NCBI GenBank assembly: GCA_964585475.1
Contig: CAZPDF010000002.1
Span: 1,631 to 65,630, forward strand
Length of the DNA: 64,000 nt
Origin: an uncultured Candidatus Saccharibacteria bacterium
GTDB taxonomy: Bacteria > Patescibacteriota > Minisyncoccia > Sungbacterales > HO2-52-23
Direction: 5' to 3'
The stretch's first letter is position 1. Every line of letters starts with the position of its first letter. The notes under the pieces were generated by a model. That model saw nothing but the letters and a program-made list of their open reading frames with translations. It was not told the origin of the DNA and made no database searches. Below, piece after piece: positions 55,273 to 62,244 of the stretch. Position numbers and translations under genes: made by a program.

Positions 55273-55415
55273 CTCGAAGATTCGGTTTCCTCGGCCGAAT
55301 CTTAACTCGCAGCGGCATGGCGCCGCATTTTATTTTGGTTAAATTAAAAAACTCAACGGATGTCCGTTGAGTTTTTGGTTTTTGAGGGATTCGACAATTT
55401 TCTTTTAGCTACCAC

Positions 55416-56252
55416 TTAGTTATCAATATCTACCGCACGCTCTTTGCGTAATGTTCGGAATTGTTCTAGCAGGTCTGGATTGTTATTTTGCAAGAACTCC
55501 CAGGCATGCAAGTTTAAGTCAAGCTCATATGTATATTTGTATTCCGTATGAGTCCTTTTGTATTCCAGGAGCCTTGAAGCCATTTCTAGCCGTTCGGACA
55601 CAGTAGGATTTTCTGAAGTATAGGCCGCTTCAGCATCGATCATGACGTGCATCGCCCAGGGTGTATACATTTGTAAGCGTCTGTTCCCCGGATATTTTGC
55701 ATAGATGTTTAACAAGAAATCAATGACAGTAATTCCATATCTTTTGCCATAGTACCTGCCCAGTAGCGCAAAATCGGAAAGCGATCTTGATAGTTGATTT
55801 CTGTCGCTATCGTCATCTTTATTCCAATCAATAGCTTTTATTACTTCCAGCATCTGCCTAAAGAGCGGATCCGTCTGTTCAAAATTAAACTCTTGACGAG
55901 TATCTTGAATATCCGCAAGGCGCCGCGAAATAGTCTTAAAAGATGTTTCAAGAAAGTCCTGTGCGGTCATTCCATATTTTTCGAGTAATGCCGGTGTGAT
56001 ATCCGCATTTCCTTTGCAGCTTAGCTCGTCACCGCCTTTTATGTTATTTTCGTCGCGTTTTTCTCCTTTGGCGCTAATCCGAATAGTATACTCGTCAATC
56101 CTTTCTATACGAGTGCTATTTTCGAAGTTTTTTAACTCGCCGACCTTCAGCATCTCCCAATATTGATCTCGTTTCGGGTTTTGCGCGAAACTTGATTGTG
56201 AAAGAACCAAGACACCCAATGCAACAAATAGGGAAGTAGTTACTCTTTTCAT
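55416..56252 (-). CDS. secreted protein with one copy of a roughly 130-aa repeat domain (YYGK(R/Q)YG core), paralog of 56467-57882
   Basis: Signal peptide MKRVTTSLFVALGVLVLSQSSFAQN; domain ...DWNKDDDSDRNQLSRSLSDFALLGRYYGKRYGITVIDFLLNIYAKYPGN... Confidence 0.5.
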   Translation of the reverse strand: MKRVTTSLFVALGVLVLSQSSFAQNPKRDQYWEMLKVGELKNFENSTRIERIDEYTIRISAKGEKRDENNIKGGDELSCKGNADITPALLEKYGMTAQDFLETSFKTISRRLADIQDTRQEFNFEQTDPLFRQMLEVIKAIDWNKDDDSDRNQLSRSLSDFALLGRYYGKRYGITVIDFLLNIYAKYPGNRRLQMYTPWAMHVMIDAEAAYTSENPTVSERLEMASRLLEYKRTHTEYKYTYELDLNLHAWEFLQNNNPDLLEQFRTLRKERAVDIDN

Positions 56253-56466
56253 CCGTCGCACCCGCGTTCTTTTGTGTGAATATGTAGCACAGCTCCGTAT
56301 TTCTGTCAAAGTAGCCAGACGAGCCGTTGAGTATAAGTTAATTCCACATACGAAAAGTAGGGAAGTGTTTCTACTAAACTATTGTCGCCGATCGGCGGTG
56401 GTAGTTTAGTAGCTGACGTATCACCGGTTTTAAAAATCCCAACGGAGGTCCGTTGGGCGCTTTTTT

Positions 56467-57882
56467 CTACTTTTTCTCGTTTTCGCGGGTTTTTTTAAGA
56501 TCCAGCAGGCGCTTCACTAAATCCGGCGCAACTACCTGAAGGATCGCTTCTGCCGAGCCGGACGACACGGAATCATCAGGGTAATAAAGATAGAGGGTGT
56601 AAAGTTTCTCGCCAAGCTCTCTTCGCTCGGCCCGGGTGGGGATTTCTATTCCTCGGGCATCCGCTGAAGTGATCATTCGTCGAATGGATTCCTGGTACAC
56701 ATCTCTTAGCGTGCCGTCTTGGGGATACTTTCTCATAAGATCTTCCAGCATCCGAACAATGCGCCATCCGTATTGTTTGCCGTATGCTGCCGTCCACGCG
56801 ATTCTCTCCACCTCGCTTTTATCAAATGGCAGAGAGCCGTCTGGTCTGGGTCGCGCGCGGTTAAGAATTTTTTCGATTTCCGAAAGAAGCGTCCACGATG
56901 CAGAATTATTTTCTTGATACCAGACGCTTGACCGTAATGATTCCACGAGCGCCTTGAATGCTTCCTTCTGGGTGAGGCCCGATATTGGAAAATCGTAACG
57001 CGGATCGTGAAAGCTTACGTTTTCAATCGGAGAGTAAGCCGAGCTACGGTTTAGAGTTTCCTTTTCTCTTAGCGCGACTTCCTGCTCGTTTCGTACCGCA
57101 TAAATTTTTTCAAGAACGTCGGGTGCTACAATTCTTGCTAAGGCCTCTCCGCCATGGTAGGAATCCAGCGGCAGGTATGCGGAAGGATAGTTTTTATAAA
57201 GCTCGAGAAGTTTTTCTAGCAGAGTTCTTCGTTCCTCCGTTGTGGGGACTCCGATGCTGGAGGAGGGTGCGAGCGTAAGGAGGTGGTGCACTGCCACGCG
57301 AAGGGCAACGTGAATTTCGCTTTCAGGGAACTCTGCGGTAAGTTCGGTAAGAAGTTCTAGGATCTTGAAGCCGTACTGCTTGCCATAATAATATCCAATT
57401 TGAGCGAGGGCATAGGGCGCATCGCTAATAGAGGATGTCGTCTTGTAGTCCCCCCAGTCCATTGTTTTGGCAAACGACACAATTTTGTCAAAAAGTTTGT
57501 CGGCTTGCGGATCGTCAGTGATTCCTGCCTCCTTCATTTCGCTGAGGCGTTCCTCGAGTTCTTTAACCAAAAAATAAAAGGCGTCTTGCGTTTTCTGGCC
57601 CTCGGTCGGCTCGTTCGGCTCGCATGAAGAGTTTCCCATTTCATCAAAACGCAAAGGTGCTTTTCCTGTCGAGAGATTTTTCTCGGTGATTTTATTTACC
57701 TTGTTTCCGGTTAGGGAAACGACGATTGTATCCTCGCCCCGCAATTCTATTTTCAGCGAGCCGTTGCCTACGTTGGAAAGTCGTTCAATATCCTCTTTTT
57801 GCCAATTTTGCGCGAAACTTGATTGTGAAAGAACGAGGATTCCGACAAGCAGGGAAAGGAGGAGAGGAATAAGCTTTTTCAT
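56467..57882 (-). CDS. secreted protein with two tandem copies of the YYGKQYG repeat domain
   Basis: Signal peptide MKKLIPLLLSLLVGILVLSQSSFAQN (shares VLSQSSFAQN with the paralog); repeats around ...ALAQIGYYYGKQYGFKILELL... and ...AWTAAYGKQYGWRIVRMLEDL... Confidence 0.5.
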   Translation of the reverse strand: MKKLIPLLLSLLVGILVLSQSSFAQNWQKEDIERLSNVGNGSLKIELRGEDTIVVSLTGNKVNKITEKNLSTGKAPLRFDEMGNSSCEPNEPTEGQKTQDAFYFLVKELEERLSEMKEAGITDDPQADKLFDKIVSFAKTMDWGDYKTTSSISDAPYALAQIGYYYGKQYGFKILELLTELTAEFPESEIHVALRVAVHHLLTLAPSSSIGVPTTEERRTLLEKLLELYKNYPSAYLPLDSYHGGEALARIVAPDVLEKIYAVRNEQEVALREKETLNRSSAYSPIENVSFHDPRYDFPISGLTQKEAFKALVESLRSSVWYQENNSASWTLLSEIEKILNRARPRPDGSLPFDKSEVERIAWTAAYGKQYGWRIVRMLEDLMRKYPQDGTLRDVYQESIRRMITSADARGIEIPTRAERRELGEKLYTLYLYYPDDSVSSGSAEAILQVVAPDLVKRLLDLKKTRENEKK

Positions 57883-58199: not shown

Positions 58200-58322
58200 C
58201 TATTTTGAACTGCGGTATACGTATTTAGCGGATGTTCTTGAGAACTGCGGCCACAAGCCCGGTGTCGATAGAATCCCAGTGCGTAGTCTGCAGTTTCTGA
58301 TTGTTCAAAATAGGTGTGGGGG
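58200..58322. repeat. Palindromic element, CCCCCACACCTATT family, immediately upstream of nrdJ
   Basis: cccccacacctattttgaac ... gttcaaaataggtgtggggg; 20-bp perfect TIRs flanking 83 bp; sibling at 25627-25689. Confidence 0.7.
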
Positions 58323-58365
58323 CACGCCGAGGAGGGCGGAGGAGAATTTTTGTCAAGAAACGTAC

Positions 58366-61300
58366 ATGACACGGATCCTTCAAGACCAAAGAACAGAAGA
58401 GCATAAAGCAGCTCGACACCCGCTTCCTTTGAAGCGGCTTTTTACTAAAGAAGGATCGCACCCCTTCGACGGGGTTGGGTGGAAGAAAGTGAAAGTTACC
58501 GTGCGCGGCATCAACGGTCACGTTGAGGAACGGGAACTTGAATTTCCGGATTTTTGGTCGGAGAACGCCGCAATCATTGCGGGCTCCAAATATTTTCGCG
58601 GCCGCATCGGGTCTCCGGAGCGAGAAATATCAGCACGCGAGATGATCCGCCGGGTTTCCGAAACTATCAGCGGCTGGGGTTTTAATCTCGGATACTTTGA
58701 TACCCAGGATGATGCGCAAATTTTTGGAGAGGAACTCGCGCATATACTTCTCCACCAAAAAGCCGCTTTTAATTCTCCGGTCTGGTTTAACGTTGGAATA
58801 GAGTCTCCTCCGCAGTGTTCCGCCTGTCAGCCGTACCGAGCGCTGGTAAGTACGCCCTCCGGATTTTTCCCGATTGGAGAAATCGTAGAAAAAAATCTTT
58901 TGGGACTGCCGGTATACGATTCACAAGGCATTACGCGGGTTATTGCCGTAAAAAATAACGGAGTAAAAAATGTTTATAAAATCTGTCTTCGTAACGGAAC
59001 TTTTATAGAAGCCACCGGAGACCATTTGATCAAAGCAGCGCGCGAAAGAAGAACACGATCGCAGTGGATTCGCGTTGACGAACTGAGTGAAGGAATGCGG
59101 CTACATTTGTATCCGCATAGAGAAATTCTACAGAAGCAAATTTTGGCGCCTGCTATGCAGGATTTGGTTAGTAGTGCGGCCGCGAATTCGAATGTTATTA
59201 CCGCAGCACCTCCGCTAGTTTCGCTTAAAAATTCACAAGTGGAGATTGGTGAAGCGGCGCTTGCCGGATGGCTGCAGGCGGATGGGTTTGTGGGGCAGTA
59301 TCAAACAGGAACCAATCGTTCCTTGACCATAGAGTTTATGGCAGTGACTCCCGAGGAAAAGCAGTGGATAGAGATGCATCTTAATACCGTATTTCCTTAC
59401 GTTCATCGGAAAGTACGTATCACCAAGACCAAAGCGGGAACTCCCATAACGAGGATTCGCCTGTACGGTGAATCGCTGCGTTCTTTTGTAGAAAAGTATG
59501 AGCTTTTGAAGAGACGTCAGGCTATCCGTGTGCCCCAGGCGCTTTGGAAGAGTCCGCCGCAGGTTAGCAGTGCATATTTGAAGAGCGTCTTTCAGGGTGA
59601 AGGATTTGTACATATGCGAGAACGGTCGGTTCACGTCGCCTTTGACACCATCAGCCAGGAATGGATGCATGATGTACAAATACTTTTATATGGACTTGGT
59701 ATTTATTCGCGCATTCGGCATAAAAAAGAACCTCGTTCTAACCGCAGCGATCTCTATGAACTTGATATCAGTTATGGAGGTGAACGAAAAAAATTCGCTG
59801 ACCGCATCGGATTTATAAGCCAAGAAAAACAGGATAAGTTAAATGCCTCACTGGAAATTGATCGTCAGAAGAACGTCCCCGATCTTCGAGAGGAAGAGAT
59901 TGTCCATATCGAGCAGTTGGGCGAAGAGGTGGTATACGATATTCAAACCGAGAGCGGTGAATATTTAAGCAATAACGTTGCTGTTCATAATTGTTTTATA
60001 CTTTCGGTCGAGGACAACATGGAATCGATCCTGCAATGGATTTACACCGAGGGCATGATTTTCAAGCGCGGATCCGGCGCGGGGATAAATCTTTCCACTC
60101 TTCGCTCAAGCCACGAGACGTTGTCCAAAGGCGGCCATTCTTCCGGTCCGGTATCTTTCATGAGAGGAGCGGATGCGGTTGCCGGCATGATTGCCTCCGG
60201 CGGATCAACCAGGCGTGCGGCAAAAATGGTTGTGCTGAATGCCGACCACCCGGACGTTATGAGATTCATACGTTCGAAGTCCGAGGAAGAAAAAAAAGTT
60301 CGGGCGCTGATTGCGGCAGGATATAATATGTATGATTTGAATAATGACGCTTGGAACTCGATTCAATATCAAAACGCGAATAATTCGGTAAGAGTCACGG
60401 ATGAATTTATGAATGCCGTTGAGGGCGATGAGAAATGGACCACGCGATATGTTACCACCGGCAAGGTGACCGAGGAAGTCCGGGCGCGCGATCTTATGCG
60501 CGCGATTGCCCAAGCCGCCTGGGATTCCGGAGATCCGGGGATGCAGTATGACACCACTATCAATCGCTGGCATACGGCTTCAAACACGGGCCGCATAAAC
60601 GCCTCTAACCCGTGCGCCGAATACATGCACCTTGATGATTCCGCCTGCAACCTTGCCTCGATCAACCTTCTGCGGTATTTGAATCGGGACGGGACTTTTA
60701 ACGTGCGCGATTTCATCCATACGGTGGATATCATGACTTTGGCGCAGGAAATCATAGTTGATTCTTCAAGCTATCCCACGGAAAAAATCGCTAAAAACGC
60801 GCATGAATTCCGGCAGCTGGGCTTAGGTTATGCCAATTTGGGCGCACTTCTTATGACTTGGGGCTTGCCCTATGACTCGGAAGAAGCGCGCCACACAGCA
60901 GCTTCCATAACCGCGCTTATTTGCGGGGAGGCGTATCGCTATTCTGCCGAGATTGCCAAACGCATGGGTCCTTTTCCCGGATACAAATTTAATAAAGCGC
61001 CGATGTCAAATGTCCTGGTCATGCATCGCGACTCGTTCGGAAGGGTGAGGGAGACGCGGGTTACGGATCGCGAGATATATCGTGCCGCAAAAAAAGTATG
61101 GGAGGAGGCCGTGGCTATGGGCAAGAAATACGGAGTTCGCAATTCGCAGGTTACGGTTATAGCCCCCACCGGAACCATCGCCCTTATGATGGATTGCGCA
61201 ACCACCGGGGTGGAACCTGAATTTGCGCTGGTGAAAATCAAAAATCTCGTCGGGGGTGGAACGATGAAATTCGTAAATACCGCCGTGCCGGATGCTCTTT

Positions 61301-62244
61301 TGCACCTCGGGTATCTTGAGGAGGAAGTTGGTGCGATTGTCTTTTACATTGAAAAAAACGGAACGATTGAGGGCGCGCCGGGATTAAAAGAGGAGCATTT
61401 GGCGGTTTTTGATTGCGCGGTAAAACCTGCAGGTGGAAAGCGATCAATCGCCTGGCAGGGACATGTAAAAATGGTGGGAGCAGTGCAGCCCTTTATCTCG
61501 GGAGCAATTTCAAAAACCTTCAATATGCCGCACGAGACCACGGTTGAAGAAATTATGCAGGCCTACACTATGGGTTGGAAATTGGGACTTAAGGCCTTTG
61601 CCGTCTATCGCGACGGATCAAAAGCGGCCCAGCCCTTGGTAACTGCCTCCGGGCAGGGCGGCGGGTCTTTCGAGCGAAAACCCGCGCGCAGGAAACTTCC
61701 TCCAACCCGGCCCTCCGAGACCCACAAATTCTCGATTGCCGGGCATGAAGGATATTTGACTTACAGCACTTTTGAGAATGGCGATTTGGCCGAAATTTTT
61801 ATCCGTATGTCAAAACAGGGCTCGACTTTGGCAGGGCTCTTGGATGCATTCGCGATTGCGATTTCGATCGCGCTTCAGCACGGGGTTCCTTTGAAAATTT
61901 TGGTGCGAAAATTTGCCTACGGCAGGTTTGAGCCGGCAGGATACACCGAAAATGCGGCAATCCAAATTGCAACCTCCATTACCGACTACATCTTCCGCTA
62001 TCTTGCGCTTAGGTTTTTGTTGCCGCAGGATTTGGATGAATTGGGAATTAAAGCGCCTCCCAAGGAAGTGGAGGCGATGACCAAAACGCTCAACGGGCTA
62101 CTGGAGGCGCGCGAGAAATCTTTGCCGGATCCGGATCGGCTCGTTTATGCCGATAGCGTATGCCGCGAGTGCGGAGGAATGATGATTCAGACCGGCGCCT
62201 GCAAAACCTGTTTTAGATGCGGAGCGACGTCTGGGGGTTGTTAA
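58366..62244 (+). CDS. nrdJ: class II (adenosylcobalamin-dependent) ribonucleotide reductase NrdJ, interrupted by an intein
   Basis: Extein motifs: ...SPVWFNVGIESPPQCSA|CFILSV... (active-site Cys loop), GSGAGINLSTLRSSHE, NPCAEYMHLDDSACNLASINL, C-terminal CRECGG...CKTCFRCG zinc ribbon; start ATG 58366 is tentative. Confidence 0.9.
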   Translation: MTRILQDQRTEEHKAARHPLPLKRLFTKEGSHPFDGVGWKKVKVTVRGINGHVEERELEFPDFWSENAAIIAGSKYFRGRIGSPEREISAREMIRRVSETISGWGFNLGYFDTQDDAQIFGEELAHILLHQKAAFNSPVWFNVGIESPPQCSACQPYRALVSTPSGFFPIGEIVEKNLLGLPVYDSQGITRVIAVKNNGVKNVYKICLRNGTFIEATGDHLIKAARERRTRSQWIRVDELSEGMRLHLYPHREILQKQILAPAMQDLVSSAAANSNVITAAPPLVSLKNSQVEIGEAALAGWLQADGFVGQYQTGTNRSLTIEFMAVTPEEKQWIEMHLNTVFPYVHRKVRITKTKAGTPITRIRLYGESLRSFVEKYELLKRRQAIRVPQALWKSPPQVSSAYLKSVFQGEGFVHMRERSVHVAFDTISQEWMHDVQILLYGLGIYSRIRHKKEPRSNRSDLYELDISYGGERKKFADRIGFISQEKQDKLNASLEIDRQKNVPDLREEEIVHIEQLGEEVVYDIQTESGEYLSNNVAVHNCFILSVEDNMESILQWIYTEGMIFKRGSGAGINLSTLRSSHETLSKGGHSSGPVSFMRGADAVAGMIASGGSTRRAAKMVVLNADHPDVMRFIRSKSEEEKKVRALIAAGYNMYDLNNDAWNSIQYQNANNSVRVTDEFMNAVEGDEKWTTRYVTTGKVTEEVRARDLMRAIAQAAWDSGDPGMQYDTTINRWHTASNTGRINASNPCAEYMHLDDSACNLASINLLRYLNRDGTFNVRDFIHTVDIMTLAQEIIVDSSSYPTEKIAKNAHEFRQLGLGYANLGALLMTWGLPYDSEEARHTAASITALICGEAYRYSAEIAKRMGPFPGYKFNKAPMSNVLVMHRDSFGRVRETRVTDREIYRAAKKVWEEAVAMGKKYGVRNSQVTVIAPTGTIALMMDCATTGVEPEFALVKIKNLVGGGTMKFVNTAVPDALLHLGYLEEEVGAIVFYIEKNGTIEGAPGLKEEHLAVFDCAVKPAGGKRSIAWQGHVKMVGAVQPFISGAISKTFNMPHETTVEEIMQAYTMGWKLGLKAFAVYRDGSKAAQPLVTASGQGGGSFERKPARRKLPPTRPSETHKFSIAGHEGYLTYSTFENGDLAEIFIRMSKQGSTLAGLLDAFAIAISIALQHGVPLKILVRKFAYGRFEPAGYTENAAIQIATSITDYIFRYLALRFLLPQDLDELGIKAPPKEVEAMTKTLNGLLEAREKSLPDPDRLVYADSVCRECGGMMIQTGACKTCFRCGATSGGC
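58825..59991 (+). mobile_element. 389-aa intein with a LAGLIDADG homing-endonuclease domain inserted at the NrdJ active-site loop
   Basis: Begins CQPYRALVSTPSGFFPIGEIV (block A), TGDHLI (block B, T..H), LAGWLQADGFVG and YLKSVFQGEGFV (two LAGLIDADG motifs), ends VYDIQTESGEYLSNNVAVHN followed by +1 Cys. Removal restores QCSA-CFILSV. Confidence 0.85.

Follow-up and report, generated by a model that had tools for sequence, protein, structure and literature searches.

A 64,000-nucleotide stretch of the genome of an uncultured bacterium (GenBank contig CAZPDF010000002.1; the whole stretch is called the window below) carries ftsA and ftsZ on the plus strand, followed by two minus-strand genes, which we call B and A, and then by a class II ribonucleotide reductase (RNR) gene on the plus strand. 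Genes A and B are convergent with ftsZ and divergent from the RNR gene. A preliminary description of this DNA had proposed that they are paralogues encoding secreted proteins with near-identical signal peptides ending in VLSQSSFAQN. Our analysis bears this out as far as the genes and their sequences go: both open reading frames are present, their products share 30% identity over 289 columns (BLASTP, E 2e-23), and each begins with a Sec-type signal peptide that ends in this string. A mechanical list of open reading frames starts B at a TTG codon (55416-56309, 297 amino acids), whereas we place its start at ATG 56252 because the signal peptide begins there and the public gene call agrees. Coordinates are collected in Table 1; throughout, L-numbers denote genomic loci and P-numbers the proteins compared.

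Table 1. Features of the locus of genes A and B, in window positions. Signal peptides, solenoid domains and RNA hairpins are predictions.
Feature	Position	Strand	Length	Remarks
Protein A	56467-57882	minus	471 aa	Open reading frame; identical to public protein P0001; signal peptide, N-terminal beta module and two helical-hairpin (alpha-solenoid) domains, residues 94-280 and 305-470
Signal peptide of A	57805-57882	minus		MKKLIPLLLSLLVGILVLSQSSFAQN; from the translation
First solenoid domain of A	57043-57603	minus		Residues 94-280; motifs DW, YYGKQYG, FP, PTTEER, APDVL; from alignments
Second solenoid domain of A	56473-56970	minus		Residues 305-470; motifs YGKQYG, YP, PTRAER, APDLV
Protein B	55416-56252	minus	278 aa	Open reading frame; start from public gene call and signal peptide position; signal peptide, low-confidence N-terminal module and one helical-hairpin domain, residues 87-278
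Signal peptide of B	56178-56252	minus		MKRVTTSLFVALGVLVLSQSSFAQN; includes the 29-nt stretch identical in A
Solenoid domain of B	55419-55994	minus		Residues 87-278
29-nt stretch in A	57806-57834	minus	29 nt	GTTCTTTCACAATCAAGTTTCGCGCAAAA; encodes VLSQSSFAQN
29-nt stretch in B	56179-56207	minus	29 nt	100% identical to that in A
Terminator-like hairpin after A	56438-56457	minus		CCCAACGGA-CC-TCCGTTGGG, then a T run
Two-way terminator-like hairpin	55347-55376			Between the 3' ends of B and ftsZ
Near-palindrome	56371-56412		42 nt	Between the terminator of A and the start of B; arms CTACTAAACTATTGTCGCCGA / TCGGCGGTGGTAGTTTAGTAG
Class II RNR gene	58279-62244	plus		B12-dependent type; interrupted by an intein

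We compared the two proteins with each other and with themselves. One had been described as holding a single copy of a domain and the other two, and this is what the alignments give: the C-terminal half of A matches B a second time (BLASTP, E 6e-08), residues 1-285 of A match residues 286-471 with 34% identity over 106 residues (E 2e-17), and a profile of the three copies aligns the second copy of A over about 195 residues. The repeat unit, first put at about 130 residues, proved to be longer, since alignments and structural models place it at about 180-190 residues (residue ranges in Table 1). Ahead of it both proteins have a common N-terminal module of about 60 residues that is not repeated. 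The YYGK(Q/R)YG core, the DW and the YP are present as described, but DW is missing from the second copy of A. No further copy was detected by the three-copy profile in a six-frame translation of the 64-kb window. The closest relative of B is not A but P0004, from another organism (41% identity), and the second domain of A is nearer to the P0008 and P0010 second domain than to the first domain of A. Therefore both duplications are old, and distinct subfamilies exist.

Sequence searches indicate that the family is new and unnamed, while its fold and architecture, described below, are not new. Searches with A and B of Pfam (E <= 10), NCBIfam (E <= 10), PHROGs (E <= 1) and, by phmmer, of Protein Data Bank (PDB) sequences gave nothing below about E 0.02; the best single-sequence PDB match (phmmer) was non-significant at E 0.096. 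Likewise, the 26 sequences that make up our family set and alignment gave only six unrelated single-member matches to Pfam at E <= 0.1, and no shared or repeat family. Two of the Pfam candidates, Autoind_bind (E 0.026) and SidD_cat (E 0.018-0.11), each appeared in one member only and below the cut-offs, and were rejected. The family profile matched PDB sequences in just three marginal cases, all designed helical proteins (E 0.008-0.02, about 35-70 residues). Literature searches returned nothing on the family.

The census of relatives that had been proposed gave about 23 other clusters and 10 genomic settings. In an hmmsearch of 1.84 billion representatives clustered at 50% identity, the three-copy profile retrieved 27 proteins at E <= 0.001. 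Two of these are false, namely P0020 (1367 amino acids, SIR2-STAND-TPR) and P0027 (Big_3 repeats), in both of which many copies of a short motif inflated the score. The 23 true other members are 254-458 amino acids long and are aligned over their whole length; P0010 and P0024 have two domains, as in A. None of the family clusters examined contains more than two sequences, and these come from metagenome assemblies; the few organism names given are only "Parcubacteria group bacterium" and "Candidatus Sungiibacteriota bacterium", in agreement with the proposal of a lineage-specific module. Relatives were found only by exhaustive profile search. A word-indexed search of 5.8 billion proteins with A and with the three-copy and 26-sequence profiles returned only A and B themselves and P0026, the word index being swamped or too insensitive at 20-30% identity, and the pattern YGK[QR]YG matched 96 stretches in genome contigs, none of them a relative.

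The rejected P0020 is a curious protein in itself. It combines a SIR2-like domain and a STAND NTPase with sixteen near-identical, strikingly homogeneous 40-residue TPR-like repeats (…CEQTVEVLKSLHESYPDDSEVRV…). A 21-residue motif of the family of A and B (a helix followed by YP-D/N-x-x-L) resembles the repeat unit of this TPR-annotated protein, but the profile-profile probability is 3.7%, and P0020 is unrelated to the family.

We examined the likely architecture of A and B with AlphaFold models. The model of B has a mean predicted local distance difference test (pLDDT) score of 77.8, with values of about 80-97 in the helical part from residue 90 onward; that of A has a mean of 77.5, with about 86-98 in the second domain. 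Because the predicted TM-score of the A model is 0.46, the orientation between its two domains is unreliable. Each domain is predicted to form eight main helices, arranged as four hairpins (in the first domain of A, residues 94-119, 125-140, 154-166, 168-184, 190-202, 215-231, 245-252 and 254-280). The predicted structures thus show the stacked antiparallel helix-turn-helix hairpins that define an alpha-alpha solenoid. A tandem ancestral unit of 30-45 residues was not recovered when the four hairpin units were compared with each other by hhalign (probabilities 0.3-5.9%). A Foldseek comparison with the PDB, also proposed earlier, gave no match at E <= 0.001; the best were a designed repeat protein, TPR proteins and 14-3-3 proteins. 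By the models, the domain has a common type of fold, the generic alpha-alpha solenoid seen in the HEAT/ARM/TPR class. The domain had been called novel, and this holds in that no sequence match ties it to a known family, but not for its predicted fold; a confident assignment was obtained for the fold class only.

The nearest structural likenesses are HEAT/ARM-type solenoids (the PP2A A subunit, VPS35, importin-beta, eIF3a) and designed DHR proteins. The family is like these in predicted fold, but sequence identity is only 6-15%, A and B match no corresponding Pfam model at a cut-off as loose as E 10, nor do all members at E 0.1, and a sequence repeat could not be detected between the four hairpins. 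Furthermore, the natural solenoids matched are eukaryotic, cytoplasmic and long, whereas A, B and their relatives have one or two short domains of four hairpins and appear to be exported proteins of bacteria. In this last respect the family is closer to TPR or Sel1-like envelope proteins such as PilF (PDB 2ho1), which are exported bacterial helical-hairpin scaffolds with signal peptides. TPR proteins including PilF are among the best Foldseek matches, but these are non-significant (E at least 0.02, query-normalised TM-scores 0.2-0.36), and the family has no Pfam TPR or Sel1 match and no 34-residue periodicity; hmmscan at E <= 10 found none of HEAT, HEAT_2, Arm, TPR_x, Sel1 and PPR in A or B. 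The family therefore appears to resemble HEAT, ARM and TPR scaffolds in predicted fold and presumed action, while belonging to none of their Pfam families.

The positions of the conserved motifs on the models suggest a structural role. TDxLF, PTxxER and APDxL map to helix starts and YP lies just past a helix end, and the GK/RRYG motif spans a helix-helix junction. Because most motifs sit at helix starts or just after a helix end, we infer that they are structural more than a catalytic or functional signature. The same positions bear on the possibility that A and B are an exported all-helical enzyme, an inhibitor or an immunity protein, for example an enzyme that acts on glycans or the wall, or a protein that inhibits a lytic enzyme of foreign origin. 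The few charged and aromatic residues that are strongly conserved (DW, GK/RRYG, E-R, P-D) could be read in that way, and rapid evolution is typical of conflict-system proteins. Most of these residues, however, are the ones at the helix boundaries, and none of the settings examined has a gene for a cognate toxin or enzyme next to the family gene. We consider such a function unlikely.

We then turned to the N-termini, where signal peptides were judged by eye. Both proteins have the layout of a type I signal peptide, that is a basic N-terminus, a hydrophobic core and small residues at positions -3 and -1: A reads MKK-LIPLLLSLLVGILVL-SQSSFA|QN and B reads MKR-VTTSLFVALGVLVL-SQSSFA|QN. Cleavage of the A signal peptide is predicted, and likely, after SFA. 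The 23 other full-length family sequences all begin, as A and B do, with basic residues, which are followed by a hydrophobic core and a C-terminal region of small residues. Because every full-length member starts with a signal peptide, an extracytoplasmic location of the family is a reasonable reading of these sequences, and to this extent the earlier term "extracellular module" can be kept. The N-terminal module has a conserved W-x-P right after the predicted cleavage site, followed by a DGT-x-x-x-x-G-x-G hairpin. In P0004, P0013, P0015 and P0019 it also carries paired cysteines (SCPKL...YYGCG), which fit an extracytoplasmic location.

How the proteins might be held after export was examined in the same way. 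Features of lipoproteins, sortase substrates or other anchored surface proteins were not found: the cleavage-site cysteine is absent from A, B and most members, the full-length members have no consistent lipobox, second hydrophobic segment or C-terminal sorting motif, and Pfam finds no anchoring domain in A or B. The C-termini are charged (…KKTRENEKK, …RAVDIDN). The hydrophobic segment of 15-20 residues might itself be an uncleaved anchor, which would make these membrane-anchored cytoplasmic or surface proteins, given that cleavage is predicted from sequence. Against such an anchor, nearly every member has small residues at -3 and -1 (SFA, SWA, ISA, SYA) after its hydrophobic core, and the W-x-P just downstream is conserved, as expected for a defined mature N-terminus; an anchored protein is accordingly improbable.

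The signal peptides of A and B are also alike at the level of DNA. The 29-nt stretch that encodes VLSQSSFAQN is 100% identical in the two genes, synonymous sites included, whereas overall protein identity is only 30%, and when the window was shuffled 100 times, two matches never turned up. Either a short tract of gene conversion or a constraint on the nucleotide sequence itself is suggested by this identity. Orthologues elsewhere have a peptide similar to VLSQSSFAQN, but with synonymous differences in their DNA.

Comparison of genomic settings indicates that the family is an accessory, fast-diverging gene set that usually occupies a variable slot between ftsZ and the RNR gene. The slot holds a family gene in 8 of the 10 settings examined. 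Outside the window these include L002 (P0006), L003-L006 (P0008), L009 (P0028), L010 (P0017) and L011 (P0009); in species-representative genomes they are L020 and L018, the member in L018 being divergent. The gene lies elsewhere in L007 and L008. P0012 is found between aspartyl-tRNA synthetase and deaminase genes, and P0018 beside genes of acyl-CoA metabolism. In a set of 80 FtsZ-anchored loci from species-representative genomes (L012-L091), the order ftsA-ftsZ-RNR-CobA-ComEC-MBL is common and recurs across many Parcubacteria lineages. A family member occupies the slot in L018 and L020 alone; the majority show a gap of 0.5-0.9 kb with no convincing gene. Genomes that share the occupied slot have FtsZ proteins 71-83% and RNR proteins 63-89% identical, and family proteins only 22-38% identical. 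Such patchy occupancy and fast divergence are as expected for an environment- or host-facing protein, and not for a core component of division or nucleotide metabolism.

The slot can be as short as about 0.5 kb or can exceed 3 kb, and it sometimes contains a PaaX_M-like gene (L010, possibly L014). In the window, the intein that interrupts the RNR carries a LAGLIDADG homing-endonuclease domain; an RNR intein is also present in L011, and L010 and others have an RNR without one. The window FtsZ is 81% identical to that of a Sungiibacteriota metagenome-assembled genome (MAG), which places the window in this part of the Parcubacteria. Many MAGs among L013-L038 are titled "uncultured Candidatus Saccharibacteria bacterium", with FtsZ proteins 62-80% identical to that of the window and Parcubacteria-type synteny; these names are probably generic placeholders and do not denote true Saccharibacteria.

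Proximity to ftsZ raises the possibility that the family is an extracytoplasmic component of division or envelope growth, its solenoid scaffolding wall-remodelling or divisome proteins and hence kept beside ftsA-ftsZ. The gene directly adjoins ftsZ in 8 of the 10 settings, and the neighbourhood of L007 also contains ScpA/B, DivIC, MurJ and a PBP-like peptidase. On the other hand, the family gene converges on ftsZ and carries a terminator of its own, so that the two are not co-transcribed. Of the close relatives that retain ftsA-ftsZ, most have an empty slot. These include L012, the closest relative (FtsZ 81% identity), from which the whole RNR-CobA segment is missing. Divergence to 22-38% identity, against 71-83% for FtsZ, is unlike that of a core divisome partner, and adjacency to housekeeping genes is expected by chance in small Parcubacteria genomes. 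We therefore assign a role in division only a small probability.

The other flank of the slot could instead point to an extracellular scavenger of cobalamin or nucleotide precursors, tied to the B12-dependent class II RNR and the CobA/BtuR adenosyltransferase. Parcubacteria usually lack cobalamin synthesis and must import cobalamin, and in the window, L009, L010 and L011 the family gene is divergent from a class II RNR gene with CobA nearby. Most relatives, however, keep RNR and CobA without a family gene, the members in L007 and L008 have no RNR nearby, and L020 and L009 have a different, ATP-cone type of RNR. Moreover, no known B12-binding fold was matched, and neither a cobalamin riboswitch anywhere in the window nor another RNA element near A and B was found at Rfam gathering scores, the only match in the window being a tRNA-Leu. 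Scavenging of this kind is highly unlikely.

With these alternatives weighed, we consider it moderately likely that A, B and their relatives are accessory, fast-evolving, Sec-exported solenoid proteins that act outside the cytoplasm as non-enzymatic binding scaffolds. A cleavable signal peptide would direct export through Sec, leaving a mature protein made of a short N-terminal beta module and one (B) or two (A) four-hairpin alpha-solenoid domains. The exported protein would be soluble, free or loosely held at the cell surface. Like HEAT, ARM and TPR proteins, it would use the surface of its solenoid to bind a partner, for instance a peptide, another protein or an envelope polymer.

Several points weigh against this reading. 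The case for export is made from sequence features, and the N-terminal segment may instead be an uncleaved signal anchor. The fold comes from predictions based on an alignment of 26 sequences, in which the N-terminal module reaches pLDDT values of just 40-65 and is modelled as four strands in A and as a helix plus a hairpin in B. A solenoid fold is compatible with catalysis, and the invariant GK/RRYG and E-R residues may form a site. No partner gene that would point to a ligand co-occurs consistently in the genomic settings examined, and the recurrent adjacency to ftsZ and the B12-dependent reductase could reflect a functional link and not mere conservation of gene order.

A more specific version of the scaffold reading would make the family a fast-diversifying surface recognition or attachment factor by which Sungbacteria-like Parcubacteria contact a host or partner, with the slot between ftsZ and RNR serving as a hotspot for the gain, loss and duplication of variants. 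We regard this as doubtful. Fast-evolving exported proteins are nevertheless natural candidates for interaction with hosts or partners in presumed episymbionts, and the family may become a target once a co-culture of Sungbacteria type exists. Candidate-phyla-radiation bacteria have a large surface proteome that lacks annotation, and the scaffold reading, if true, makes one small addition to it. No new fold, mechanism or system is revealed, and no long-standing question becomes directly testable. This is an ordinary lineage-specific family from a lineage already known for many unannotated exported proteins.

The FESNov catalogue (PMC10849945) gathers lineage-specific families of unknown function from uncultivated bacteria, and the family of A and B is like these in kind: it is small, unannotated, restricted to a lineage and found only in metagenome assemblies. 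For the family of A and B, the limits of the domains, the class of fold, a signal for export and a genomic slot by which it can be recognised have now been assigned.

Finally, we inspected the DNA around A and B for transcription signals. Genes A and B each have a terminator-like hairpin behind them, and they lie on the strand opposite to that of their neighbours. The hairpin after A indicates that A and B are separate transcription units. The two hairpins have a common core, CAACGGA-NN(N)-TCCGTTG, and that after B is symmetric and flanked on either side by T/A runs; from its sequence, it could terminate both B and the convergent ftsZ. Upstream of B, the arms of the near-palindrome are 81% complementary with no spacer, and this element could be an operator or an RNA structure.

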